Below, piece after piece: positions 2,476 through 55,597 of a stretch of 64,000 nt of DNA; position 1 is the first letter of the stretch; each line of letters opens with the position of its first letter. The DNA is taken from NCBI RefSeq assembly GCF_009931435.1, contig NZ_CP043414.1. One strand, written 5' to 3'. The translations under genes were made by a program, and so were the position numbers. The notes below the pieces were generated by a model. It saw only the letters and a program-made list of their open reading frames with translations, searched no databases and had not been told where the DNA came from. Source of the DNA: Escherichia coli (GTDB lineage: Bacteria; Pseudomonadota; Gammaproteobacteria; Enterobacterales; Enterobacteriaceae).

Positions 2476-2676
2476 ATGGATCATAGTCTTAATTCTTTAA
2501 ATAATTTCGATTTCCTGGCGCGTAGTTTTGCCAGAATGCACGCAGAAGGTCGCCCGGTCGATATTCTAGCCGTTACTGGTAACATGGATGAAGAACATAG
2601 AACCTGGTTTTGCGCACGTTATGCCTGGTATTGCCAACAGATGATGCAAACCAGAGAACTGGAATTAGAACATTGA
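2476..2676 (+). CDS. glgS: GlgS (surface composition/glycogen regulator), 66 aa
   Basis: Translation [66 protein letters not shown] recognised as GlgS; ATG at 2476. Confidence 0.9.
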
Positions 2677-2680
2677 TATT

Positions 2681-2702
2681 ACGGGCCGTCTGGCCCGTTT
2701 TT
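2681..2702. terminator. Bidirectional stem-loop between convergent glgS and ubiK
   Basis: Inverted repeat acgggccgtctggcccgt followed by T-run. Confidence 0.6.
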
Positions 2703-2710
2703 GTGGTGCT

Positions 2711-3010
2711 TTATTCTGCTTTATCAACCGGCGGGATAGCCGGAGGAGATTGAAGTTCTGCTACCGGATTATTGCGCGCTTCCAGTTCGCTGATGCGTTG
2801 TTCCAGTAACGCCAGTTTTTCACGAGTCCGTAACAGGACTTGCGTCTGAACGTCGAATTCTTCGCGGCTTACCAGATCGAGACGCGTCAACTGCGCTTGT
2901 AGGGTTTGGCGGATTTTTTTCTCCACATCTTCCCCGAACTCCCTGATTCCTTTAGGCATTGATTCGTGAACCTGGCGAGCGATTTGCTCAATTTTTTTCG
3001 GGTCAATCAT
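2711..3010 (-). CDS. ubiK: Ubiquinone biosynthesis accessory factor UbiK (YqiC)
   Basis: ORF track frame; likely start [15 protein letters not shown]...; coiled-coil BMFP-type protein; divergent from ribB as in K-12. Confidence 0.8.
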
Positions 3011-3129
3011 TGTAGTTTCCCTGTACTGATAGGTGTTGAGTGCCATTGTAGTGCGATAAGGGTAAGTCATAAACCAGAATAATGTGAAGCTATGCGTTGC
3101 TGCCGCTAATCATTAGCGTTATAGTGAAT

Positions 3130-3290
3130 CCGCTTATTCTCAGGGCGGGGCGAAATTCCCCACCGGCGGTAAATCAACTCAGTTGAAAGCCCGCGAGCGC
3201 TTTGGGTGCGAACTCAAAGGACAGCAGATCCGGTGTAATTCCGGGGCCGACGGTTAGAGTCCGGATGGGAGAGAGTAACGATTCTGTCGG
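3130..3290 (+). promoter_or_regulatory. FMN riboswitch (RFN element / SroG) in ribB leader
   Basis: Conserved RFN motifs agggcggggcgaaattccccaccggcggtaaat ... cagcagatccggtgtaattccggggccgacggttagagtccggatgggagag directly upstream of ribB. Confidence 0.8.
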
Positions 3291-3383
3291 GCATGGACCC
3301 GCTCACGTTATTTTGGCTATATGCCGCCACTCCTAAGACTGCCCTGATTCTGGTAACCATAATTTTAGTGAGGTTTTTTTACC

Positions 3384-4037
3384 ATGAATCAGACGCTACT
3401 TTCCTCTTTTGGTACGCCTTTCGAACGTGTTGAAAATGCACTGGCTGCGCTGCGTGAAGGACGCGGTGTAATGGTGCTTGATGATGAAGACCGTGAAAAC
3501 GAAGGCGATATGATCTTCCCGGCAGAAACCATGACCGTTGAGCAGATGGCGCTGACCATTCGCCACGGTAGCGGTATTGTTTGCCTGTGCATCACTGAAG
3601 ATCGCCGTAAACAACTCGATCTGCCAATGATGGTAGAAAATAACACCAGCGCCTATGGCACCGGTTTTACCGTGACCATTGAAGCGGCTGAAGGGGTGAC
3701 TACCGGTGTTTCTGCCGCTGACCGTATTACGACCGTTCGTGCTGCGATTGCCGATGGCGCTAAACCTTCTGATCTGAATCGTCCTGGCCACGTTTTCCCA
3801 CTGCGCGCGCAGGCGGGTGGTGTGCTGACGCGTGGCGGCCATACCGAAGCGACTATTGATCTGATGACGCTGGCAGGCTTTAAACCAGCTGGTGTGTTGT
3901 GTGAGCTGACTAATGACGATGGCACGATGGCGCGTGCGCCAGAGTGCATTGAGTTTGCCAAGAAACACAATATGGCGCTCGTGACTATTGAAGACCTGGT
4001 GGCATACCGTCAGGCACATGAGCGTAAAGCTAGCTGA
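3384..4037 (+). CDS. ribB: 3,4-dihydroxy-2-butanone 4-phosphate synthase
   Basis: ORF track 217 aa; sequence recognised as RibB. Confidence 0.95.
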
Positions 4038-4071
4038 AAACCGCTGCTTAATTTACCGCGTTAATCAAGAA

Positions 4072-4104
4072 ACCGAAGCTATTACTGGCTTCGGTTTTTA
4101 TTTT
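4072..4104 (+). terminator. ribB intrinsic terminator
   Basis: Hairpin accgaagct...ggcttcggt followed by tttttatttt. Confidence 0.7.
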
Positions 4105-4299
4105 GCTCTTGTTATGCAAGATGTTAATTCCTCTTCTCTTTCTATGAGAAAATTTCATTAATATCAGGCATTCTTTTCCATTATGATCAAAATCATATAA
4201 TTGTTCCGTTATTATGCGACCATATGAATATATCCGAAAAAGGATATGTGAATTTTATGCGCTAAATGTTTAGTATTGTTAAATATTAAGGGTAAAAGG

Positions 4300-8254: not shown

Positions 8255-9736
8255 TCAGTTACGGAAAGGGTTATGACCGTTACTGGTAGTCGTGCGTGCG
8301 GATGCTTGCTGAACGGCTGGGGCTGGGCTATCTGGTGCATAACCATCAGCAATAGCATTTTGTTCTGGCGTTTGCGGCGCAACGTTTTCTGGATTAGTGG
8401 AAACCGGTTTGCTCAGCGCATTGTTCAGTGCCAGCAGATCCTGCTCGTTCAACGTACCCAGAGCTGATTTAATATTCAACTGGTTAATCAGGTAGTTATA
8501 ACGCGCATTCGCCAACTCTTGCTTGGCGTTGTACAGCGTGGTGGTCGCATCCAACACATCAACAATGGTACGCGTACCGACCGAGTAGCCCGCTTCCATC
8601 GCGTCTAATGAGCTTTGAGCGGAAACTACGGCTTGTTTGTAGGCGTTAATGCTACTGATAGAAGCATTAATGTTGTTGAATGAGGAACGTACGGTTTGCA
8701 CGACGCTACGATGGGCGCTTTCCAGTTGCTCACTGGCACCAACAAAGTTGTACTGGGCCTGTTTCACCTGCGAGTTAACCATTCCGCCCTGATAAATCGG
8801 CAGCGAGAAGCTCAGGCCAACTTTGTTCTGGCCCATATTGCTATCGTCATACTGGGTACCAGCGGCACCACGGGTTTTCGAACCGCTATATGAGGTGTCA
8901 GAAATCCCGGTAGAAGCCGTTAAATCCAGAGTCGGTAAGTGACCATCCTGCGCCTGGCGAATTTGCTCGCGCGCCAGGTCTTGGCTCAAGCGTGCCTGTA
9001 ACAGCGACAGGTTGCGTTTTTCGGCTTCTTTCAGCAGCGCGTTAACCGGCTGCGGTTTGTCGGTTTTAAAGTTTTCGACATTCAGCGCCGCCAGTTCCGG
9101 ATAATAGTTACCGGTGATCTGACGCAGTTGCTCTACAGCGTTATCGAGGTTATTACGTGCGGTCACTTCATTCGCCAGCACGGTATCGTACTGTGCACGG
9201 GCGTTCTGCACGTCGGTGATCGCCACCAGGCCCACGTTAAAACGTTGAGTGGTTTGATCTAACTGACGGTAGATCGCTTCTTTTTGCGCCTGTGTATAGG
9301 AAAGAACGTCAATCGCATTCAACACGTTGAAATAAGCGGTCGCGGTGTTGAGGATCAAGGTTTGTTGATCGGTCTGATACGTGACGTCCTGAATACCCGC
9401 TGCTTTTTCCTGTAGCGTTAACGCACGCCATTTTGACATATCAAAAATGGATTGAGTTAACTGCAGGGACGCACTGGTCGCGTTAGAGTTGATGCCGTTC
9501 GCGTCGCGGTAGCCGTTGCTATAGGTGTAATCTGCACCTAAACCTAGCTGTGGCAGTAATGGACTGCGCGCTTCATTAATTTTTTCAAAGGCAGCATCAC
9601 GATCGGCGGCAGACTTACGCAATTCCGGGTTACTAAGGCGTGCTTGCTGATAAACTTGCATCAGGTTCTCGGCCTGGCTCAACGTACTGAACCCAGAAAG
9701 GCTCAGGCCGATAAGAATGGGGAGCAATTTCTTCAT
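8255..9736 (-). CDS. tolC: Outer membrane efflux channel TolC, 493 aa precursor
   Basis: ORF track frame; start at MKKLLPILIGLSLSGF; sequence recognised as TolC. Confidence 0.95.
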   Translation of the reverse strand: MKKLLPILIGLSLSGFSTLSQAENLMQVYQQARLSNPELRKSAADRDAAFEKINEARSPLLPQLGLGADYTYSNGYRDANGINSNATSASLQLTQSIFDMSKWRALTLQEKAAGIQDVTYQTDQQTLILNTATAYFNVLNAIDVLSYTQAQKEAIYRQLDQTTQRFNVGLVAITDVQNARAQYDTVLANEVTARNNLDNAVEQLRQITGNYYPELAALNVENFKTDKPQPVNALLKEAEKRNLSLLQARLSQDLAREQIRQAQDGHLPTLDLTASTGISDTSYSGSKTRGAAGTQYDDSNMGQNKVGLSFSLPIYQGGMVNSQVKQAQYNFVGASEQLESAHRSVVQTVRSSFNNINASISSINAYKQAVVSAQSSLDAMEAGYSVGTRTIVDVLDATTTLYNAKQELANARYNYLINQLNIKSALGTLNEQDLLALNNALSKPVSTNPENVAPQTPEQNAIADGYAPDSPAPAVQQASARTTTSNGHNPFRN

Positions 9737-30466: not shown

Positions 30467-30699
30467 TATGCCGGGGAGGGTATTGCTTCCTCCCGCTTGC
30501 AAGGAACGCCGGATGAAACGTTAAGTCGTCATCCGGCAGCATATTCAACCCCCGGAAACGATAAAAATTCCCTTGAAACCGTTGTTTATTCATGCGTTGC
30601 GATTAACAATACGCTTTTCCAGAGAGCGGCTTTTAACAATGCCCTAACCTGATTTCAGGTGACGTACAATGCCAGTCTCTCAGACCTTCAGAGGGTGTT

Positions 30700-37800: not shown

Positions 37801-37904
37801 ACGTTCCTCCTTTATATGAACTCACCGGAGCAGGCTCCGGTGAGGTGTTGTGAACTTAAGTCTGGACGAAATGCCCGAAAACGAAAGTTTGAGGCGTAAA
37901 AAGC

Positions 37905-43178: not shown

Positions 43179-43604
43179 ATGGCAATGCATCTTAACGAAA
43201 ACCTCGACGATAACGGCGAAATGCATGATATCAACGTGACGCCGTTTATCGACGTGATGTTGGTTCTGCTGATTATCTTTATGGTGGCAGCGCCGTTAGC
43301 GACGGTAGATGTGAAGGTGAACTTGCCTGCTTCTACCAGCACGCCGCAGCCTCGTCCGGAAAAACCGGTTTATCTGTCGGTGAAGGCGGACAACTCGATG
43401 TTTATCGGTAACGATCCGGTCACCGATGAAACAATGGTTACAGCGCTGAATGCGTTAACCGAAGGTAAGAAAGATACCACTATCTTCTTCCGTGCGGATA
43501 AAACTGTCGATTACGAGACGTTGATGAAGGTAATGGATACGCTGCATCAGGCGGGTTACCTGAAGATAGGTCTGGTCGGCGAAGAAACAGCCAAAGCGAA
43601 GTAA
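43179..43604 (+). CDS. exbD: TonB-system protein ExbD
   Basis: ORF track 141 aa; follows exbB. Confidence 0.9.
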   Translation: MAMHLNENLDDNGEMHDINVTPFIDVMLVLLIIFMVAAPLATVDVKVNLPASTSTPQPRPEKPVYLSVKADNSMFIGNDPVTDETMVTALNALTEGKKDTTIFFRADKTVDYETLMKVMDTLHQAGYLKIGLVGEETAKAK

Positions 43605-43611
43605 AGAGAAT

Positions 43612-43712
43612 TGCCTGATGCGCTACGCTTATCAGGCCTACAAAATCTATCGCAAGGTATTGAATTTGCATGAATTTGTAGGCCGGATAAGGCGTTCACG
43701 CCGCATCCGGCA
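43612..43712. repeat. REP/BIME palindromic units downstream of exbD
   Basis: gcctgatgcgctacgcttatcaggcctac and tgtaggccggataaggcgttcacgccgcatccggca, typical REP sequences. Confidence 0.75.
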
Positions 43713-43729
43713 AGAGTTATAAAGTACGA

Positions 43730-43766
43730 TGATGCCCGGTTGCTTTTCACAACCGGGCATTTTTTT
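43730..43766. terminator. Hairpin plus T-run between convergent exbD and yghA
   Basis: gcccggttgcttttcacaaccgggc followed by attttttt. Confidence 0.65.
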
Positions 43767-44649
43767 AGCCTAAATGCTCGCCGCCGCACACGCCGTGCAC
43801 TTCTGCGGTGACATAGCTCGACTCCTGACTTGCCAGATAAACATACACTGGGGCCAGCTCCGCCGGTTGTCCTGCACGTTTCATTGGTGTTTGCTGTCCA
43901 AACTGCGGGATCTTATCCTGCGTCTGTCCACCGGAAATTTGCAGTGCCGTCCAGATAGGGCCTGGTGCGACAATGTTCACTCGAATGCCTTTTTCTGCAA
44001 CCTGTTTTGCCAGGCCACGGCTGTAGTTCAGAATCGCCGCCTTCGTAGCCGCATAGTCCAGCAAATGTGGGCTTGGCTGGTACGCCTGGATTGACGAAGT
44101 GGTGATGATACTGGCACCTTTCGGTAGCAGGGGGATCGCTTCCTGGGTTAGCCAGAACAGCGCGAAAACGTTAATGGCAAAGGTCTTTTGAAACTGTTCG
44201 CTGGTGAGGTCTGCAATATCAGGAATGGCAACCTGTTTCCCGGCGACCAGCGCCATAATATCCAGCCCGCCTAACGCCTTGTGCGCTTCGTGAACCAGCG
44301 AACGGGCGAATTTCTCATCGCTTAAATCGCCTGGCAGCAGGACGGCTTTGCGTCCGCATTCTTCAATGATCTTTTTCACATCCTGAGCGTCTTCTTCTTC
44401 CACGGGAAGATAACTGATCGCTACGTCAGCGCCTTCACGCGCGTAAGCGATGGCGGCAGCACGACCGATTCCGGAATCGCCCCCTGTCACCAGTGCTTTA
44501 CGATCTTTCAGGCGACCGCTACCAACATAGGTTTTCTCGCCGCAATCCGGCACCGGTGTCATTTTCGCCTGGATGCCTGGCGTCGGTTGTTTCTGTTTGG
44601 GATATTCACCAGTGTAATACTGCGTGGTCGGGTCTTTTAAATGAGATAT
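43765..44649 (-). CDS. yghA: Short-chain dehydrogenase/reductase YghA (conserved N-terminal extension lacks ATG)
   Basis: ORF track 43765..44562 (265 aa, TGGDSGIG Rossmann motif); in-frame upstream 29 codons encode [29 protein letters not shown], with ATA where an ATG start is expected (44647..44649). Confidence 0.8.
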
Positions 44650-44770
44650 TGTTTTTCTCCCTTCAGGTTCAACGTCCTTTAAGGGTAGACGCTCTCGATG
44701 CGTTGATAAGGGAACCAGGAAGATCCCTAAACCTCGGATTTATGCGACAAAGGTTTAACGGATATGTTGA

Positions 44771-45334
<564 letters not shown>

Positions 45335-45341
45335 TCTGATT

Positions 45342-45361
45342 CGGGCGCGGTTCTCGCGCCC
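45342..45361. terminator. Bidirectional hairpin between convergent yqhA and gpr
   Basis: gggcgcggttctcgcgccc inverted repeat. Confidence 0.55.
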
Positions 45362-45373
45362 GTTATTAACAGG

Positions 45374-46414
45374 TCATTTATCGGAAGACGCCTGCCACAG
45401 ATTCAGCTCGCCATCGGCGATATGCTGATCAATCTGCGCCAGCTCCTCGGTGCTAAATGTCAGATTATTCAGCGCCTGGACATTCTCTTCCAGTTGCTCT
45501 GCACGGCTGGCACCGATCAATACCGACGTCACTCGCTCATCTTTCAGCAACCAGCTTAACGCCATTTGTGCCATTGATTGTCCACGCTGCTGTGCCATTT
45601 CATTCAATAACCGCAGGCTGTTGAGGTTGGCTTCGGTGAGCATTTTCGGCGTCAGACCACGAACTTTATTCCCTTCACGATGCATCCGTGAATCTTGCGG
45701 AATACCGTTGAGATATTTTCCGGTCAGCAATCCCTGAGCCAGAGGAGTAAAGGCAATGCAGCCCACGCCGTTATGTTGCAGGGTATCCAGCAGGCCGCTT
45801 TTATCCACCCAGCGGTTCAGCAAATTGTACGAAGGTTGATGAATTAACAGCGGAATTTTCCACTCGCGCAGCAACTCGACCATTTTTTGCGTCCGCTCTG
45901 GCGAGTAAGAGGAGATCCCGACATAAAGCGCCTTACCGCTTTGTACCGCATGAGCCAGCGCAGAGGCGGTTTCTTCCATCGGCGTATTTTCATCGACGCG
46001 ATGAGAGTAAAAGATATCGACATACTCAAGCCCCATCCGCTTCAGGCTTTGGTCGAGGCTGGCGAGCAGGTATTTACGTGAGCCGCCAGAGCCGTACGGG
46101 CCGGGCCACATATCGTATCCGGCTTTGGTAGAGATAATCAGTTCATCGCGATAAGCGGCAAAATCCTCCCGCAGCAGGCGACCAAAGTTCTCTTCTGCGC
46201 TTCCTGGAGGCGGCCCGTAATTGTTGGCTAAATCAAAGTGCGTAATGCCCAAATCAAACGCTTTGCGCAGGATCGCACGCTGTGATTCCAGTGCGTTAAC
46301 GTGACCGAAATTGTGCCATAAACCGAGCGATAACGCGGGCAGGCGTAAACCGCTTTTTCCGCAATAGCGGTATTGCATCTGCCCGTAACGTTCGGGATTC
46401 GCTAACCAGACCAT
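45374..46414 (-). CDS. gpr: L-glyceraldehyde 3-phosphate reductase (aldo-keto reductase), 346 aa
   Basis: ORF track frame; start at MVWLANPERYGQMQYRYCGKSGL. Confidence 0.9.
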   Translation of the reverse strand: MVWLANPERYGQMQYRYCGKSGLRLPALSLGLWHNFGHVNALESQRAILRKAFDLGITHFDLANNYGPPPGSAEENFGRLLREDFAAYRDELIISTKAGYDMWPGPYGSGGSRKYLLASLDQSLKRMGLEYVDIFYSHRVDENTPMEETASALAHAVQSGKALYVGISSYSPERTQKMVELLREWKIPLLIHQPSYNLLNRWVDKSGLLDTLQHNGVGCIAFTPLAQGLLTGKYLNGIPQDSRMHREGNKVRGLTPKMLTEANLNSLRLLNEMAQQRGQSMAQMALSWLLKDERVTSVLIGASRAEQLEENVQALNNLTFSTEELAQIDQHIADGELNLWQASSDK

Positions 46415-46567
46415 GACCTCTCCTTTCCACCATTCAATTTCGAAACAATGTTTCCAGTTTAGCGATTTACCAGGGGGGATCCCGTAGCATCGCTCACAGT
46501 GTGACGAAAAACTGGGCAAAAACACGTGCTTATGCTTTGCTTAAAAAAACACCAATTGAGGAGTGCA

Positions 46568-47458
46568 ATGATGCCGCGTCTGACCGCTAAAGATTTCCCA
46601 CAAGAGTTGCTGGATTACTACGACTATTACGCTCACGGGAAAATTTCGAAACGTGAGTTCCTCAACCTTGCGGCGAAGTATGCGGTGGGCGGGATGACGG
46701 CATTAGCGTTGTTTGATTTGCTCAAGCCAAATTATGCGCTGGCGACTCAGGTAGAGTTTACCGACCCGGAAATTGTTGCTGAGTACATCACGTATTCTTC
46801 GCCAAATGGTCACGGCGAGGTACGGGGTTATCTGGTGAAGCCCGCAAAGATGAGCGGCAAAACGCCAGCCGTGGTGGTGGTGCATGAGAATCGTGGACTG
46901 AATCCGTATATCGAAGATGTGGCACGGCGAGTAGCGAAGGCGGGGTATATCGCCCTGGCACCTGACGGCTTAAGTTCCGTTGGAGGTTATCCGGGTAATG
47001 ATGATAAAGGTCGTGAGCTGCAACAGCAGGTTGATCCAACCAAACTGATGAATGATTTCTTTGCCGCAATTGAGTTTATGCAACGCTATCCGCAAGCGAC
47101 AGGCAAAGTGGGTATTACCGGATTTTGCTATGGCGGTGGTGTATCGAACGCGGCGGCTGTCGCGTATCCGGAAATGGCCTGCGCGGTGCCGTTTTATGGT
47201 CGTCAGGCACCCACTGCCGATGTGGCGAAGATTGAAGCGCCTTTACTGCTCCACTACGCGGAACTGGATACCCGAATCAACGAGGGCTGGCCCGCTTACG
47301 AGGCGGCGTTGAAAGCCAATAATAAGGTCTATGAGGCGTATATCTATCCGGGGGTTAATCACGGATTCCATAATGATTCCACGCCCCGTTATGACAAATC
47401 TGCCGCCGATCTTGCCTGGCAAAGGACGCTGAAATGGTTCGATAAATATCTCTCCTGA
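46568..47458 (+). CDS. yghX: Dienelactone hydrolase-family protein YghX (intact)
   Basis: ORF track frame; start at ATG 46568 (MMPRLTAKDF) with SD gagga; uninterrupted 296 aa. Confidence 0.7.
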   Translation: MMPRLTAKDFPQELLDYYDYYAHGKISKREFLNLAAKYAVGGMTALALFDLLKPNYALATQVEFTDPEIVAEYITYSSPNGHGEVRGYLVKPAKMSGKTPAVVVVHENRGLNPYIEDVARRVAKAGYIALAPDGLSSVGGYPGNDDKGRELQQQVDPTKLMNDFFAAIEFMQRYPQATGKVGITGFCYGGGVSNAAAVAYPEMACAVPFYGRQAPTADVAKIEAPLLLHYAELDTRINEGWPAYEAALKANNKVYEAYIYPGVNHGFHNDSTPRYDKSAADLAWQRTLKWFDKYLS

Positions 47459-47576
47459 TAGGTTTATCTCTTACGGGATTACGTCTTAAACAAGCATGAA
47501 AAAATAGCGTGCGCAAAAGTCGTTCTTTGCCTAAAATATCGCTATATATGACAATATATAGCGAATGAGGTGAACG

Positions 47577-47864
47577 ATGAATAACCATTTTGGTAAAGGC
47601 TTAATGGCGGGATTAAAAGCAACGCATGCCGACAGTGCGGTTAATGTGACAAAATACTGTGCCGATTATAAACGCGGTTTTGTATTAGGCTACTCACACC
47701 GGATGTACGAAAAGACCGGAGATCGCCAGCTTAGCGCCTGGGAAGCGGGGATTCTGACGCGCCGCTATGGACTGGATAAAGAGATGGTAATGGATTTCTT
47801 TCGTGAGAATAATTCCTGTTCTACGTTGCGCTTTTTTATGGCCGGTTATCGCCTCGAAAATTGA
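47577..47864 (+). CDS. yghW: DUF2623 protein YghW
   Basis: ORF track 95 aa; position upstream of the hyb operon. Confidence 0.75.
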
Positions 47865-48052
47865 TCAAACATACGTATTATCTTGCTTTAATTAATTACA
47901 CTAATGCTTATTCCCTTCGTTTTAGTGCCCCGCCGCAGTATCATGATATCGATAACCATAATAAATGTGTGGTAAATGGCGCATCGATCGCATTATTGAT
48001 TTTGCGATTGAGGCAAAATATATGCCAGATCTTCGCAACGGAATAACTATAA

Positions 48053-49171
48053 ATGACTGGAGATAACACCCTCATCCATTCTCACGGCATTAACCGTCGT
48101 GATTTCATGAAGCTTTGTGCAGCATTAGCCGCCACCATGGGGTTAAGTAGCAAAGCCGCTGCAGAAATGGCCGAATCGGTTACTAACCCGCAGCGTCCGC
48201 CAGTTATCTGGATTGGCGCGCAGGAGTGCACCGGTTGTACGGAATCTCTGCTTCGTGCAACGCATCCAACGGTAGAAAACCTCGTGCTGGAGACTATCTC
48301 TCTCGAGTATCACGAAGTGCTTTCCGCCGCCTTCGGTCATCAGGTCGAAGAGAACAAACATAACGCTCTCGAGAAGTACAAAGGGCAGTATGTGTTAGTG
48401 GTGGATGGTTCCATCCCATTAAAAGATAACGGTATTTATTGCATGGTTGCCGGTGAGCCGATTGTGGATCACATCCGCAAAGCGGCGGAAGGCGCAGCAG
48501 CCATTATCGCTATCGGTTCCTGCTCTGCGTGGGGCGGTGTTGCCGCAGCTGGAGTTAACCCAACTGGCGCTGTCAGCCTGCAAGAAGTTCTGCCGGGCAA
48601 AACCGTTATCAACATTCCGGGCTGCCCACCGAACCCGCACAACTTCCTCGCGACCGTTGCGCACATCATCACTTACGGCAAACCGCCGAAACTGGATGAC
48701 AAAAACCGTCCGACTTTCGCCTATGGCCGTCTGATTCACGAACACTGCGAACGCCGCCCGCACTTCGATGCTGGTCGTTTTGCCAAAGAGTTCGGTGATG
48801 AAGGCCACCGCGAAGGCTGGTGCCTGTACCACCTCGGCTGTAAAGGGCCAGAAACTTACGGCAACTGCTCAACGCTGCAATTCTGCGATGTTGGTGGTGT
48901 GTGGCCGGTGGCGATTGGTCACCCGTGCTATGGCTGTAACGAAGAAGGTATCGGCTTCCATAAAGGCATCCATCAGCTTGCCAACGTCGAAAACCAGACT
49001 CCGCGTTCGCAGAAACCGGATGTTAACGCTAAAGAGGGCGGCAACGTCTCTGCGGGCGCTATCGGTTTGCTCGGCGGTGTGGTTGGGCTGGTTGCCGGTG
49101 TCAGCGTGATGGCGGTGCGTGAACTGGGTCGTCAGCAAAAGAAAGATAACGCTGACTCACGGGGAGAATAA
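48053..49171 (+). CDS. hybO: Hydrogenase 2 small subunit
   Basis: ORF track 372 aa; Tat signal RRDFMK; [NiFe] hydrogenase small-subunit cysteine clusters. Confidence 0.95.
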
Positions 49172-49173
49172 CC

Positions 49174-50160
49174 GTGAACAGACGTAATTTTATTAAAGCA
49201 GCCTCCTGCGGGGCATTGCTGACGGGCGCGTTGCCGTCTGTCAGTCATGCGGCTGCTGAAAACCGCCCGCCAATTCCGGGATCGCTGGGGATGTTGTACG
49301 ACTCGACGCTGTGCGTAGGCTGCCAGGCTTGCGTCACTAAGTGTCAGGATATCAACTTCCCTGAACGTAACCCACAAGGGGAACAGACCTGGTCGAACAA
49401 CGACAAACTGTCGCCGTACACCAATAACATCATTCAGGTGTGGACCAGCGGCACGGGAGTCAACAAAGACCAGGAAGAGAACGGCTATGCGTACATTAAG
49501 AAACAGTGTATGCACTGCGTCGATCCGAACTGTGTCTCAGTGTGCCCGGTTTCTGCGCTGAAAAAAGATCCGAAAACCGGCATTGTCCATTACGACAAAG
49601 ATGTGTGCACCGGCTGCCGTTACTGCATGGTTGCCTGTCCGTACAACGTGCCGAAGTACGACTACAACAACCCGTTTGGTGCGCTGCATAAGTGTGAGCT
49701 TTGCAACCAGAAAGGTGTGGAACGTCTCGATAAAGGCGGTCTGCCTGGCTGCGTAGAAGTGTGCCCGGCGGGCGCGGTGATTTTTGGTACGCGTGAAGAG
49801 CTGATGGCGGAGGCGAAAAAACGTCTGGCGCTGAAGCCTGGCAGCGAATACCACTATCCGCGTCAGACGCTGAAATCTGGCGACACTTACCTGCATACGG
49901 TGCCGAAATATTATCCGCATCTGTACGGCGAGAAAGAGGGCGGCGGTACTCAGGTACTGGTACTGACGGGTGTGCCTTATGAAAATCTCGACCTGCCGAA
50001 ACTGGACGATCTTTCTACTGGTGCGCGTTCCGAACATGTTCAACACACCCTGTATAAAGGCATGATGCTACCACTGGCTGTGCTGGCGGGCTTAACCGTG
50101 CTGGTTCGTCGCAACACCAAAAACGACCATCACGACGGAGGAGACGATCATGAGTCATGA
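49174..50160 (+). CDS. hybA: Hydrogenase 2 4Fe-4S ferredoxin-type component
   Basis: ORF track 328 aa; multiple CxxCxxC motifs; Tat-like signal. Confidence 0.9.
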
Positions 50161-51328
50161 TCCACAACCGCTGGGCGGCAAAATCATCAGTAAACCGGTC
50201 ATGATTTTTGGACCGTTAATCGTCATCTGTATGCTCCTGATTGTGAAGCGTCTGGTGTTCGGTCTGGGCTCTGTCTCTGACCTGAACGGCGGCTTCCCGT
50301 GGGGCGTGTGGATCGCGTTTGACCTGTTGATCGGCACCGGCTTTGCCTGTGGCGGCTGGGCGCTGGCGTGGGCGGTATACGTCTTTAATCGTGGGCAATA
50401 CCATCCGCTGGTGCGTCCGGCACTGTTGGCAAGTCTGTTTGGTTACTCACTGGGTGGCTTGTCGATCACTATCGACGTTGGTCGCTACTGGAACCTGCCG
50501 TACTTCTACATTCCGGGTCACTTCAACGTGAACTCGGTACTGTTCGAGACGGCGGTCTGTATGACCATCTACATCGGCGTGATGGCACTGGAGTTTGCTC
50601 CGGCACTGTTTGAACGTCTGGGCTGGAAAGTGTCGCTACAGCGTCTGAACAAGGTGATGTTCTTCATCATCGCGCTCGGTGCGCTGCTGCCAACTATGCA
50701 CCAGTCTTCAATGGGGTCGCTGATGATCTCGGCGGGCTACAAGGTGCATCCACTGTGGCAAAGCTATGAAATGTTGCCGCTGTTCTCGCTGCTGACGGCG
50801 TTCATCATGGGCTTCTCGATTGTCATCTTTGAAGGTTCGCTGGTGCAGGCGGGTCTGCGTGGCAACGGTCCGGATGAAAAGAGCCTGTTCGTCAAGCTGA
50901 CCAACACTATCAGCGTGCTGCTGGCGATTTTTATCGTGCTGCGCTTTGGCGAGCTGATCTATCGCGACAAGCTGTCGTTAGCGTTTGCCGGTGACTTCTA
51001 CTCCGTGATGTTCTGGATTGAAGTCCTGCTGATGCTCTTCCCGCTGGTTGTTCTGCGTGTGGCGAAGCTGCGTAATGATTCCCGCATGCTGTTCCTGTCA
51101 GCACTGAGCGCACTGTTAGGTTGTGCAACCTGGCGTCTGACCTATTCGCTGGTGGCATTCAACCCGGGCGGCGGTTACGCCTACTTCCCGACCTGGGAAG
51201 AACTGTTGATTTCTATTGGTTTTGTGGCTATTGAGATTTGCGCTTACATCGTACTCATTCGTCTACTGCCGATACTTCCTCCTTTAAAACAAAACGATCA
51301 TAATCGTCATGAGGCGAGCAAAGCATGA
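50150..51328 (+). CDS. hybB: Hydrogenase 2 integral membrane subunit
   Basis: ORF track 392 aa; polytopic. Confidence 0.9.
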
Positions 51329-53028
51329 GCCAGAGAATTACTATTGATCCGGTAACCCGAATTGAAGGGCATTTACGCATCGATTGCGAAATCGAAAATG
51401 GCGTCGTTTCGAAAGCATGGGCTTCCGGTACCATGTGGCGCGGCATGGAAGAGATCGTGAAAAACCGCGATCCGCGCGATGCATGGATGATTGTGCAACG
51501 TATCTGTGGCGTATGCACCACCACTCACGCGCTCTCTTCCGTTCGTGCGGCAGAGAGTGCGCTGAATGTCGACGTTCCGGTTAACGCGCAATACATCCGT
51601 AACATCATTCTGGCTGCGCACACCACGCATGACCATATCGTTCATTTCTATCAGCTTTCGGCGCTGGACTGGGTGGACATCACTTCTGCACTGCAAGCTG
51701 ATCCAACCAAAGCCTCCGAAATGCTGAAAGGCGTTTCGACCTGGCATCTGAACAGCCCGGAAGAGTTCACCAAAGTTCAGAACAAGATCAAAGATCTGGT
51801 TGCCAGCGGTCAGTTGGGTATTTTCGCCAATGGCTACTGGGGTCACCCGGCAATGAAACTGCCGCCGGAAGTGAACCTGATTGCGGTAGCGCACTACCTG
51901 CAAGCGCTGGAGTGCCAGCGTGACGCTAACCGCGTCGTGGCGCTGCTGGGCGGTAAAACGCCGCACATTCAGAACCTGGCGGTAGGTGGTGTCGCGAACC
52001 CAATCAACCTCGACGGTTTGGGCGTGCTGAACCTTGAGCGCCTGATGTACATCAAGTCTTTCATCGACAAACTGAGCGACTTTGTTGAGCAGGTTTACAA
52101 GGTTGATACCGCGGTTATCGCCGCGTTCTATCCGGAATGGCTGGAGCGTGGTAAAGGTGCGGTGAACTACCTGAGCGTGCCGGAATTCCCGACCGACAGC
52201 AAAAACGGTAGCTTCCTGTTCCCGGGCGGCTACATTGAGAATGCGGATCTGTCCTCGTATCGTCCGATCACTTCCCATTCCGATGAATATCTGATCAAAG
52301 GGATTCAGGAAAGTGCGAAGCACTCCTGGTATAAAGACGAAGCGCCGCAGGCACCGTGGGAAGGTACCACCATTCCGGCTTACGACGGTTGGTCTGACGA
52401 CGGCAAATATTCCTGGGTGAAATCACCGACTTTCTACGGCAAAACGGTAGAAGTGGGTCCGCTGGCTAACATGCTGGTGAAACTGGCGTCAGGACGCGAG
52501 TCTACCCAGAACAAACTGAATGAAATCGTTGCGATTTATCAGAAACTGACTGGCAACACGCTGGAAGTGGCGCAGCTGCACTCCACGCTGGGCCGTATCA
52601 TTGGTCGTACCGTTCACTGCTGCGAATTGCAGGATATCCTGCAAAACCAATACAGTGCGCTGATCACCAATATCGGCAAAGGCGATCACACCACCTTTGT
52701 GAAACCGAACATTCCGGCAACGGGTGAGTTCAAAGGTGTTGGCTTCCTTGAAGCACCGCGCGGTATGCTCTCTCACTGGATGGTGATTAAAGACGGTATC
52801 ATCAGCAACTATCAGGCAGTTGTTCCATCAACCTGGAACTCTGGCCCGCGTAACTTCAATGATGACGTTGGTCCTTACGAGCAGTCGCTGGTGGGTACAC
52901 CGGTTGCCGATCCGAATAAACCGCTGGAAGTGGTGCGTACCATTCACTCCTTCGACCCGTGCATGGCCTGTGCGGTACACGTAGTGGATGCCGACGGCAA
53001 CGAAGTGGTTTCAGTGAAGGTTCTGTAA
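51325..53028 (+). CDS. hybC: Hydrogenase 2 large subunit
   Basis: ORF track 567 aa; N-terminal RICGVCTTTH and C-terminal DPCMACAVH Ni-binding motifs. Confidence 0.95.
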   Translation: MSQRITIDPVTRIEGHLRIDCEIENGVVSKAWASGTMWRGMEEIVKNRDPRDAWMIVQRICGVCTTTHALSSVRAAESALNVDVPVNAQYIRNIILAAHTTHDHIVHFYQLSALDWVDITSALQADPTKASEMLKGVSTWHLNSPEEFTKVQNKIKDLVASGQLGIFANGYWGHPAMKLPPEVNLIAVAHYLQALECQRDANRVVALLGGKTPHIQNLAVGGVANPINLDGLGVLNLERLMYIKSFIDKLSDFVEQVYKVDTAVIAAFYPEWLERGKGAVNYLSVPEFPTDSKNGSFLFPGGYIENADLSSYRPITSHSDEYLIKGIQESAKHSWYKDEAPQAPWEGTTIPAYDGWSDDGKYSWVKSPTFYGKTVEVGPLANMLVKLASGRESTQNKLNEIVAIYQKLTGNTLEVAQLHSTLGRIIGRTVHCCELQDILQNQYSALITNIGKGDHTTFVKPNIPATGEFKGVGFLEAPRGMLSHWMVIKDGIISNYQAVVPSTWNSGPRNFNDDVGPYEQSLVGTPVADPNKPLEVVRTIHSFDPCMACAVHVVDADGNEVVSVKVL

Positions 53029-53522
53029 TGCGTATTTTAGTCTTAGGGGTTGGCAATATTTTGCTGACCGATGAAGCCATCGGTGTGCGGATTGTCGAAG
53101 CATTAGAGCAACGATACATTCTGCCGGATTATGTTGAGATCCTCGATGGCGGCACGGCGGGAATGGAGCTGCTTGGCGACATGGCAAATCGCGATCATCT
53201 GATTATCGCCGATGCCATTGTGTCGAAAAAGAACGCGCCGGGAACGATGATGATCCTGCGGGATGAAGAAGTTCCGGCGTTGTTTACCAACAAAATCTCT
53301 CCGCATCAGCTTGGCCTGGCCGACGTATTGTCGGCCCTGCGCTTCACCGGCGAGTTTCCGAAAAAGCTGACCCTGGTCGGCGTGATCCCGGAATCGCTGG
53401 AGCCGCACATCGGCTTGACACCAACGGTTGAAGCGATGATTGAACCTGCGCTTGAGCAGGTTCTGGTTGCGCTGCGCGAATCAGGCGTGGAAGCCATCCC
53501 ACGGGAGGCGACTCATGAATGA
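53028..53522 (+). CDS. hybD: Hydrogenase 2 maturation endopeptidase, 164 aa
   Basis: Start at MRILVLGVGNILLTDE; ATG overlaps the hybC stop. Confidence 0.9.
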   Translation: MRILVLGVGNILLTDEAIGVRIVEALEQRYILPDYVEILDGGTAGMELLGDMANRDHLIIADAIVSKKNAPGTMMILRDEEVPALFTNKISPHQLGLADVLSALRFTGEFPKKLTLVGVIPESLEPHIGLTPTVEAMIEPALEQVLVALRESGVEAIPREATHE

Positions 53523-54003
53523 AGAGATAGCAGGTTTTCAGACCTCCCCGAAGGCGCAAGTACAGGCAGCGTTTGAAGAAATTGCCCGGCGTTCGATGCA
53601 CGATCTCTCTTTTCTGCATCCTTCAATGCCGGTGTACGTTTCCGACTTTACGTTGTTCGAAGGTCAGTGGACGGGGTGTGTAATCACCCCATGGATGCTG
53701 AGTGCAGTTATCTTCCCCGGCCCGGATCAACTCTGGCCGCTGCGCAAAGTGAGTGAAAAAATTGGTCTGCAACTGCCGTATGGCACTATGACCTTTACTG
53801 TTGGTGAACTGGACGGTGTTTCGCAATACCTCTCCTGCTCGCTGATGTCGCCGCTTTCGCATAGCATGTCGATTGAAGAGGGCCAACGGCTGACGGATGA
53901 CTGCGCGCGGATGATCCTTTCGCTGCCGGTCACCAATCCGGATGTACCACACGCAGGGCGTCGCGCCCTGCTGTTTGGCCGCAGGAGTGGCGAAAATGCA
54001 TGA
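53515..54003 (+). CDS. hybE: Hydrogenase 2-specific chaperone, 162 aa
   Basis: Start at MNEEIAGFQTSPKAQ; overlaps hybD end. Confidence 0.85.
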   Translation: MNEEIAGFQTSPKAQVQAAFEEIARRSMHDLSFLHPSMPVYVSDFTLFEGQWTGCVITPWMLSAVIFPGPDQLWPLRKVSEKIGLQLPYGTMTFTVGELDGVSQYLSCSLMSPLSHSMSIEEGQRLTDDCARMILSLPVTNPDVPHAGRRALLFGRRSGENA

Positions 54004-54337
54004 GTTGTCGCTTTGCCAGAGCGCCGTTGAAATTATCCAACGGCAGGCGGAGCAGCATGATGTTAAGCGCGTCACCGCCGTGTGGCTGGAAATTGGCGCG
54101 CTCTCCTGCGTTGAGGAGAGCGCCGTCCGTTTTAGTTTTGAAATTGTCTGCCACGGAACGGTGGCGCAAGGGTGCGATTTACATATCGTCTATAAACCCG
54201 CCCAGGCCTGGTGCTGGGATTGCAGCCAGGTGGTGGAGATTCATCAGCACGATGCGCAATGCCCGCTCTGTCATGGCGAGCGGTTGCGTGTCGATACCGG
54301 CGATTCGCTGATCGTCAAAAGTATTGAAGTTGAATAA
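53996..54337 (+). CDS. hybF: Hydrogenase nickel incorporation protein (HypA paralogue), 113 aa
   Basis: Start at MHELSLCQSAVEII; CxxC ... CPLC zinc motif. Confidence 0.85.
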   Translation: MHELSLCQSAVEIIQRQAEQHDVKRVTAVWLEIGALSCVEESAVRFSFEIVCHGTVAQGCDLHIVYKPAQAWCWDCSQVVEIHQHDAQCPLCHGERLRVDTGDSLIVKSIEVE

Positions 54338-54349
54338 CCGGAGTTAACA

Positions 54350-54598
54350 ATGTGTATTGGCGTTCCAGGCCAGGTGCTGGCTGTCGGTGAAGATATTCAC
54401 CAGCTTGCGCAGGTTGAAGTATGTGGTATCAAGCGCGACGTGAATATCGCCCTGATTTGCGAAGGTAACCCTGCCGATCTGCTGGGCCAGTGGGTGCTGG
54501 TGCACGTCGGATTTGCCATGAGCATCATCGACGAAGATGAAGCCAAAGCCACATTAGACGCGCTGCGCCAGATGGATTACGACATTACCAGCGCGTGA
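54350..54598 (+). CDS. hybG: Hydrogenase maturation factor (HypC paralogue)
   Basis: ORF track 82 aa; N-terminal MCIGVPGQV. Confidence 0.9.
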
Positions 54599-54609
54599 TG
54601 ATTAGCTTT

Positions 54610-54691
<82 letters not shown>

Positions 54692-54730
54692 GGATCGGCC
54701 TGGATGGCTTGCTGCGACGAACACCAACCC

Positions 54731-55597
54731 TTACCCCTGACGCTTATCTTCCGTATTCGTCTCGAAATCACTGGCGTCATGGCGCTCATGCAACTGCTCA
54801 TTCAGCGGTCCGTTGGTGCGGTTAACAATACGCCCACGCTTCACCGCCGGACGTTCGCCTACTTCTTTCGCCCAGCGTTGTACATGCTTATAACTGCCCG
54901 CATCAAGAAACTCTGCGGCATCATACACACCACCTAACACCACGTTGCCAAACCACGGCCAAATCGCCATATCTGCAATGGTGTACTCATCGCCCGCAAC
55001 AAACTTATGCTGCGCCAGTTGCTTATCCAGCACGTCGAGCAGGCGCTTGGCTTCCATGGTAAAGCGGTTGATGGCGTATTCAATTTTCACCGGCGCGTAA
55101 TGGTAAAAGTGACCAAAACCACCGCCGAGGAACGGCGCGGCACCCTGTAACCAGAACAGCCAGTTCATTGCTTCAGTACGTTTCGCCAGATCCTGCGGCA
55201 GGAAGTAGCCAAATTTCTCCGCCAGATAAAGCAGAATCGATCCAGACTCAAACACGCGGATCGGCGGAGTATGGGTATGATCGCGCAGCGCCGGGATCTT
55301 CGAGTTTGGGTTCACTTCGACAAAGCCGCTGGAGAATTGATCGCCATCGCCAATACGAATCAGCCAGGCGTCGTACTCTGCACCAGTAACGCCCAGCGCC
55401 AGCAGCTCCTCAAGCATAATCGTTACTTTCTGTCCGTTTGGCGTTCCCAGCGAATAGAGTTGCAGCGGATGTTTGCCCACCGGCAGCGTTTTTTCATGCG
55501 TCGGACCAGAAACCGGGCGATTGATATTGGCGAACGCGCCGCCAGCGGATTTATCCCACGTCCAGACTTTCGCGGGCTGATAAGTATTGTCTGTCAT
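54731..55597 (-). CDS. yghU: Glutathione S-transferase-family disulfide reductase YghU, 288 aa
   Basis: ORF track frame; start at MTDNTYQPAKVWTWDK. Confidence 0.85.
   Translation of the reverse strand: MTDNTYQPAKVWTWDKSAGGAFANINRPVSGPTHEKTLPVGKHPLQLYSLGTPNGQKVTIMLEELLALGVTGAEYDAWLIRIGDGDQFSSGFVEVNPNSKIPALRDHTHTPPIRVFESGSILLYLAEKFGYFLPQDLAKRTEAMNWLFWLQGAAPFLGGGFGHFYHYAPVKIEYAINRFTMEAKRLLDVLDKQLAQHKFVAGDEYTIADMAIWPWFGNVVLGGVYDAAEFLDAGSYKHVQRWAKEVGERPAVKRGRIVNRTNGPLNEQLHERHDASDFETNTEDKRQG

Follow-up and report, generated by a model that had tools for sequence, protein, structure and literature searches.

The 64-kb stretch of DNA analysed here (the window) is a segment of the Escherichia coli chromosome; a 10-kb query taken from it (44000-54000) matches 5,425 complete E. 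coli genomes, with an identity of 95-99 % to every one of them, and the best of these matches reaches 98.9 %. In the closest annotated genome the genes follow each other as parC, plsC … metC, exbB, exbD and the convergent yghA, and further on as yqhA, gpr, yghX, yghW, hybOABCDE-hypA-hybG, the convergent yghU and gss. The two junctions considered here, exbD-yghA (site 1) and hybG-yghU (site 2), are bounded by the following features:

43179-43604 (+): exbD open reading frame, its orthologue annotated exbD
43602-43604 (+): exbD stop codon TAA; the y REP hairpin starts to pair 8 nt downstream of it
43765-43767 (-): yghA stop codon, from the list of open reading frames
54350-54598 (+): hybG open reading frame, from the same list
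54596-54598 (+): hybG stop codon TGA, 12 nt from the GTAG foot and 16 nt from the stem of the y REP
54731-54733 (-): yghU stop codon, from the same list

Since exbD and hybG are read on the + strand and yghA and yghU on the - strand, both REP sites lie between convergent genes. Elsewhere in the window, an FMN riboswitch (RF00050) was found at 3132-3280 (+) with 120.9 bits, presumably the ribB leader, and the Rfam ES173 sRNA model matches 37839-37902 (-) with 99 bits against a gathering score of 90. As regards exbB, its product is named 'tol-pal system-associated acyl-CoA thioesterase' in PGAP-annotated genomes and 'Ton complex subunit ExbB' in MG1655; the PGAP name appears to be mis-assigned and describes YbgC.

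REP palindromes were sought over the whole window with the pattern GATGCG N4-20 TTATCMGGCCT, which gave exactly four sites, at 43617-43639 (+), 43680-43707 (-), 54613-54642 (-) and 54664-54691 (+), all within the two junctions flagged beforehand; 100 dinucleotide-preserving shuffles gave none. Additionally, the 34-nt z consensus GCCGGATGCGGCGTGAACGCCTTATCCGGCCTAC matched twice, with 0 expected, at 43678-43711 (-) without a mismatch and at 54660-54693 (+) with three mismatches, and looser half-site and fuzzy searches of the 64-kb window returned no REP beyond these four. Each of the four folds as a stem, an internal mismatch bubble and a second stem, in the manner typical of REPs, whose definition is an imperfect palindrome (30-40 nt) with a bubble, at energies between -13.2 and -23.3 kcal/mol and z-scores between -4.3 and -5.4. 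The GTAG/CTAC foot is present in three of them (43638-43641, 43678-43681 and 54611-54614), and the fourth carries CTGG in its place (54690-54693). Durrant et al. give three 'known REP sequences', GCCTGATGCGCTACGCTTATCAGGCCTACG, GCCTGATGCGACGCTGGCGCGTCTTATCAGGCCTACG and TGCCGGATGCGGCGTAAACGCCTTATCCGGCCTAC (PMC11208160), and the REPs of the window differ from these queries at zero to three positions. As expected of an extragenic element dispersed in high copy number, both sites are intergenic, and REP-containing queries are found at no fewer than 39 places (median) per E. coli genome. Both sites are members of the E. coli REP/BIME family. The claim of an earlier note that typical enterobacterial REP palindromes follow exbD and hybG at convergent gene ends is borne out on both counts, and the contrary outcome, a formal search without any match to the REP consensus, is excluded by the alignment of all four palindromes. 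Of the interval under which it had listed the first cluster (43612-43766), the part at 43613-43711 stands as a BIME and the part at 43731-43766 is a terminator hairpin, not a REP. A further palindrome at 30508-30537, GCCGGATG…CATCCGGC, was considered as a fifth REP and ruled out, as it has neither the TTATC nor the GTAG motif; the hairpin at this position (GCCGGATGA…TCATCCGGC) is found some 40 nt 3' of the stop codon of parC, contains the z-REP head GCCGGATG and is not followed by a T run.

The junction after exbD comprises three parts of a BIME and a separate hairpin:

43613-43641 (+): short y-type REP, GCCTGATGCGCTACGCTTATCAGGCCTAC, recognised by the pattern, its hairpin and a query of PMC11208160
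43642-43677 (no strand): L-type linker of 36 nt, read from the sequence and the family consensus
43678-43711 (-): z1-type REP, inverted with respect to the y REP, its GTAG foot at 43678-43681 on the + strand, without mismatch to the z consensus
43731-43766 (+): intrinsic terminator of exbBD, a hairpin at 43731-43761 followed by seven T, from inverted-repeat and fold analysis

BIME-1 elements consist of y and z1 REPs separated by a long, well-conserved L linker that often carries an IHF site, and they occur as a single unit per locus (Ton-Hoang et al., PMC3333891). Site 1 (43613-43711) is such an element, also known as RIP or RIB: y and z1 REPs stand in inverse orientation around a long conserved L linker, in a single unit inserted after the stop codon of exbD and ahead of the pre-existing exbBD/yghA terminator. 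The complete order is the exbD stop codon, an 8-nt gap, the y REP, the linker, the z1 REP, a 19-nt gap and the terminator hairpin, with the CTAC and GTAG feet of the two REPs pointing toward the linker. The y REP is identical over its 29 nt to GCCTGATGCGCTACGCTTATCAGGCCTACG, the sole difference being the base that follows it, an A in the window where the query has G; it is at least 90 % conserved across 112 family copies, and of the four hairpins its own is the least stable (-13.2 kcal/mol). The hairpin of the z1 REP reaches -20.9 kcal/mol (z = -4.95). Compared with the consensus of the 112 copies, which come from Escherichia and Pseudocitrobacter, the BIME-1 of the window is identical at 97 of 107 positions, and the linker core TGCAATATATTGAATTTGCATGA is conserved in these copies even at positions left free in the search pattern. 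Non-orthologous copies with the same y-L-z1 architecture lie directly 3' of gyrB and gldA; site 1 shares with these BIME-1/RIP/RIB elements the three parts, their order and orientation and the 3'UTR position just after a stop codon, without any structural difference in the window. In each E. coli genome a 52-mer centred on the linker recurs at 12 places (median); it is covered to at least 80 % at one place in 4,984 genomes, compared with the 3,575 that hold the element at exbD, which indicates that the L linker is itself a dispersed repeat.

The exact y-L-z1 architecture was also scanned as a pattern over a collection of genomes from 100,044 species. It was found in 101 stretches, belonging to E. 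coli, E. albertii, E. whittamii, two further Escherichia species and three Pseudocitrobacter genomes, with copy numbers between about 4 and at least 20 in the genomes of these two genera, and it was absent from the Salmonella, Citrobacter and Klebsiella representatives of the collection. An orthologue of the exbD-yghA junction, which would serve to polarise gain versus loss, was sought among the 101 stretches and none was present. Stray matches on contigs of 261-3,920 bp assigned to Desulfosporosinus, Methylobacterium, Alkalicoccobacillus and a Collinsella MAG have the appearance of E. coli contamination in these assemblies. In a Pseudocitrobacter MAG, a BIME-1 unit (1069-1442 of the extracted stretch) lies a few tens of bases 3' of a hybG homologue that is 82 % identical, so the hybG gene end carries there a REP cluster of a different class than in E. 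coli. Escherichia sp. MOD1-EC7003 contains two BIME-1 matches 130 bp apart on one strand (9458-9646 of the extracted stretch), a tandem y-L-z1 pair at another locus that resembles the exbD-yghA allele of MG1655.

The hairpin between the BIME and yghA is a terminator and not a REP. Its stem is perfect over 11/12 bp, with seven G-C among 12 pairs and a loop of 7 nt; an A-run precedes it, and the T-run that follows overlaps the yghA stop codon. A G+C-rich hairpin followed by a T run, the structure of an intrinsic terminator, is thereby present on the + strand, and the - strand has no T run. The terminator is near-invariant across alleles with zero, one and two BIME units: four of five aligned sequences are identical, and that of strain 2020CK-00188 has three different positions. 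Its orthologue in MG1655 is bidirectional terminator no. 250, 'exbB:exbD:yghA', listed as convergent and adjoining REP222 (Harris et al., supplementary table, bioRxiv 10.64898/2026.03.23.713779). The window hairpin thus has its counterpart, no. 250, among the bidirectional intrinsic terminators between convergent genes, outside the REP family. With the terminator on its 3' side, the BIME is part of the exbBD 3'UTR; should this hairpin stop yghA transcription too, the BIME is beyond the end of the yghA transcripts.

Folding of the whole 3'UTR joins the y REP to the z1 REP in a single long hairpin, after which comes that of the terminator (-69.3 kcal/mol, z = -5.5). This fold bears on the possibility that the y REP mainly lowers the translation of ExbD through ribosome stalling, mRNA cleavage and trans-translation. 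According to the account of Liang et al. 2015 given via PMC12306157, REPs located less than 16 nt from a stop codon can lower the translation of the upstream gene, and at exbD, where 8 nt separate the stop codon from the start of pairing in the y REP, the spacing is within this distance and is common to the one-unit and two-unit alleles. Such an effect would nevertheless depend on the short y hairpin, which is the weakest of the four, and in the fold of the full 3'UTR the y REP is paired with the z1 REP instead. At hybG the stem begins 16 nt after the stop codon, outside the rule, although the case is borderline with 12 nt to the foot. Overall, lowered ExbD translation is an unlikely main function of the y REP at exbD.

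The junction after hybG is organised differently from the first and comprises the following features:

54611-54646 (-): long y-type REP, GCCTGATGCGACGCTGCCGCGTCTTATCAGGCCTAC, recognised by the pattern and its hairpin, with the IS621 target inside
54647-54659 (no strand): short head-to-head linker of 11-13 nt, ATTGTGCTCGATT, within the naRNA4 match at 54614-54690
54660-54693 (+): z-type REP, GCCGGATGCGGCGTAAACGCCTTATCCGGCCTGG, its foot CTGG instead of CTAC, with three mismatches to the z consensus
54686-54705 (+): 10-mer CGGCCTGGAT duplicated in tandem, at the z REP tail, from the direct-repeat list and alignment

Here the hybG stop codon is followed by a 12-nt gap, the y REP (GTAG foot first), the linker, the z REP, the duplication, 25 nt and the yghU stop codon. 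The y REP differs from GCCTGATGCGACGCTGGCGCGTCTTATCAGGCCTACG at two positions, the z REP differs from TGCCGGATGCGGCGTAAACGCCTTATCCGGCCTAC in its last two bases alone, and the z hairpin has an energy of -23.3 kcal/mol. Strains of the MG1655 type have one copy of CGGCCTGGAT, and the span is accordingly 351 bp, compared with 361 bp in the window. Site 2 (54611-54693) is a single BIME-2-like pair, known by its parts (y REP, linker of 11-13 nt, z REP) and not by tandem repetition, and the tentative assignment of the z REP to z2 rests on the type of linker and on the naRNA4 model. BIME-2 occurs as multiple tandem copies (PMC3333891); the window and all the hybG-yghU alleles examined contain a single pair, and tandem repetition is the one feature of the BIME-2/naRNA4 kind that is plainly missing from site 2. 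Compared with the y + z2 pair of REP325 on which naRNA4 is based, the window has a full-length match and the long form of y REP that gyrase prefers, and it differs by its one pair, the CTGG foot and the 10-bp tandem duplication on the 3' side. The two clusters therefore belong to different BIME classes, which refines the earlier description. Between hybG and yghU (54300-55000) no terminator-like or promoter-like site was found, and the REP pair is the sole strong structure there.

The Rfam models raise another explanation, namely that the clusters are genes for trans-acting sRNAs (naRNA4-like at site 2 and ES036-like at site 1) that would organise the nucleoid together with HU. The naRNA4 model (RF02564) matches 54614-54690 over its full length, with 92.7 bits on the - strand and 59.7 bits on the + strand (gathering score 59.5), and ES036 (CssrF) matches the L linker of site 1 below threshold, at 43634-43677 (-), with 33.5 bits where the gathering score is 37.6. 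The naRNA4 model, however, is simply a y + z2 REP pair, so any such pair matches it, and 54300-55000 is without a promoter-like site. On these grounds trans-acting sRNAs are ruled out as the main explanation, and we consider it highly improbable that the clusters are sRNA genes. The z1 REP of site 1 also has a partial naRNA4 match (40.8 bits), and the Rfam 'sRNA' families ES036 and naRNA4 appear to model parts of BIMEs.

A function exerted chiefly on DNA has also to be considered, in which IHF would bend the L linker of site 1 and gyrase, acting at the y REP of site 2, would remove positive supercoils. The IHF consensus is YAANNNNTTGATW, and an IHF-like core, CAAGGTATTGAAT, is located in the linker at 43653-43665, where it agrees with eight of the nine specified positions (the mismatch being TTGAAT against TTGATW). 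This core is kept in the paralogous BIME-1 copies, and the linker that contains it is conserved in the 112 copies at pattern-free positions too. From what is known of the family, in which the L linker of BIME-1 often carries an IHF site (PMC3333891), the linker of site 1 would be bound and bent by IHF. Likewise, BIME-2 is enriched in gyrase cleavage sites, with a preference for y REPs (PMC6379681), by which the y REP of site 2 would be a preferred gyrase site, and each of the two junctions separates convergent genes, a setting in which positive supercoils build up. Against this, no more than 'a subset' of BIME-2 act as gyrase sites, and many tandem units are present in the strongest (PMC6379681), whereas site 2 has one pair; the genes of the exbD-yghA and hybG-yghU junctions do not appear in the text-form supplementary tables that accompany the gyrase Topo-seq paper, a search of supplements gave no direct gyrase or BIME data for these genes, and many strains are without these elements. 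A chiefly DNA-based function is in our opinion possible and rather doubtful, and IHF and gyrase binding are better seen as properties that accompany membership of the family.

Both y REPs also contain a landing site for a mobile element. The natural target of IS621, an 11-nt sequence ATCAGGCCTAC with a CT core, lies inside a REP (PMC11208160), and it is intact in the two y REPs of the window, at 43631-43641 (+) and 54611-54621 (-). Occupied counterparts exist at both junctions. In E24377A, IS621 is inserted exactly at GT|AG|GCC of the hybG-yghU y REP and is flanked at either end by the AG (CT) core (380-1670 of the extracted stretch), and in EC15 it lies inside the exbD-yghA BIME, in the y REP, again with the AG/CT core at either end (2606-4155 of the extracted stretch). 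These are the target and the junctions of the REP attachment sites of IS621 (IS110 family, bridge-RNA recombinase), the copies of the window being unoccupied, and the y REPs of both sites would serve as IS621 attachment sites.

The copy number of both elements varies among strains. The exbD-yghA element was counted by contiguous matches covering at least 80 % of a query of which the BIME makes up one third, a coverage that implies at least one intact unit, and such matches were obtained in 3,575 of the 5,426 complete E. coli genomes. Allele classes were read from 59 chromosomal rows taken at even steps down the ranking of the 5,426 genomes (a quantile sample). Two tandem units (four REPs, the MG1655 type, with a spacer of 271 bp) are present in 36 of the 59, about 61 %; a single unit as in the window (two REPs, spacer of 158-160 bp) in three, about 5 %; and an empty site, with no REP and a 38-bp spacer containing the terminator only, in 18, about 31 %. 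The remaining two (about 3 %) are interrupted, and in the one genome of these that was examined, EC15, the insert is IS621. The copies of the MG1655 type show decay, their z REP having lost 1 nt and acquired several substitutions; REP222, as the element of MG1655 is named in the supplementary table of bioRxiv 10.64898/2026.03.23.713779, consists of two tandem units with a decayed distal z REP and would be an 'atypical BIME' by the published definition, in contrast to the one intact unit of the window. At hybG-yghU, the REP pair is found in 3,839 of the 5,426 complete genomes. The sample shows the y + z pair in 42 of 59, a single z REP in nine, the hybG side separated from the rest in seven (about 12 %; the insert of E24377A is IS621) and another arrangement in one. 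Most of the sampled pairs do not have the 10-bp repeat and two have an extra 9 bp; at least one REP is present in all four intact alleles that were aligned. The cross-strain comparison, with zero, two or four REPs at exbD-yghA and one or two at hybG-yghU, verifies the earlier statement that copy number varies between strains, and the description of the palindromes as recombination sites is supported by tandem amplification and by site-specific IS insertion. The sites were further called ordinary, and so they are: family members throughout, they do not depart from the known features of the family and can therefore be regarded as already known.

These alleles give weight to the view that the palindromes are neutral or selfish repeats, hitch-hikers of the REPIN/RAYT type that have no local function and persist only because they do no harm where convergent genes meet or in the interval from a stop codon to a terminator. 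About 31 % of the sampled E. coli have an empty exbD-yghA site with the terminator intact, the MG1655-type copies at this junction are decayed, the interruption by IS621 is tolerated at both sites, and terminal REPs had no global effect on half-life in one report (bioRxiv 10.64898/2026.03.23.713779). The same report nonetheless describes REPs as context-dependent mRNA stabilisers and partial terminators and finds convergent gene pairs with REPs more highly expressed, and the hybG-yghU junction has no other terminator-like structure and keeps at least one REP in the four aligned intact alleles. Neutrality is to our mind a tenable account of limited probability. It is all the same a serious rival to a local role as 3'UTR hairpins, which we rank as the most likely role, since 31 % of the sampled genomes have an empty exbD-yghA site.

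Judged by analogy with the family, the role of both sites is likely that of dispensable 3'-UTR hairpin elements, with IHF and gyrase binding as known family properties. Their spread and amplification would be due to the REP-associated tyrosine transposase (TnpA-REP/RAYT) and to recombination between copies; the REP-associated Y1 transposase binds, cleaves and recombines REPs and BIMEs (PMC3333891), which explains both the dispersal and the changes in tandem copy number. REPs in a 3'UTR are expected to be transcribed, by which site 1 would become part of the exbBD mRNA, and the resulting RNA hairpins would impede 3'-exonucleases and partly stop read-through. For the hyb operon and yghU, site 2 would be an end structure that works in both directions. 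The effects on the neighbouring genes are expected to be slight and dispensable, given that the exbD element is missing altogether from about 31 % of E. coli genomes. Taken as a whole, the reading of these sites as ordinary REP/BIME palindromes, dispersed by the means of their family, with a local 3'-UTR hairpin role and with IHF and gyrase binding as accompanying family properties, is one in which we have high confidence. A more far-reaching proposal is that the polymorphism of zero, one or two BIME-1 units after exbD is a heritable, strain-specific dial on the level of ExbD, set through ribosome stalling and 3'UTR stability, and hence on TonB-dependent iron uptake and on sensitivity to colicins and phages, with IS621 as a further state of the switch; we consider this quite improbable.

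The importance of these sites beyond correct annotation is small. Their recognition as REP/BIME elements prevents them from being mistaken for sRNA genes, given the Rfam naRNA4 and ES036 matches, or for terminators, and it explains the length polymorphism and the local alignment noise at the two intergenic regions. Of mild practical use is the fact that both y REPs are exact natural targets of the bridge recombinase of IS621 and are occupied in some strains, and the natural exbD-yghA alleles with zero, two and four REPs could be a test bed for the effects of REPs on a 3'UTR. A 701-bp query at the exbD-yghA junction has an identity of about 92 % to most E. coli, a low value that is due to the diverged BIME and to a divergent yghA 3' end. 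An origin of the window in another Escherichia species, which this value had suggested, is ruled out by the 95-99 % identity of the 10-kb query to the E. coli genomes. The yghA 3' end (43768-44100) is about 92.5 % identical to most E. coli alleles, as against 99.7 % to strain 2020CK-00188; exbD, which adjoins this region, is 95-98 % identical, and the divergence from MG1655 peaks at about 10 % in 43600-44000. The divergent yghA 3' end may be a recombined allele adjoining the BIME.
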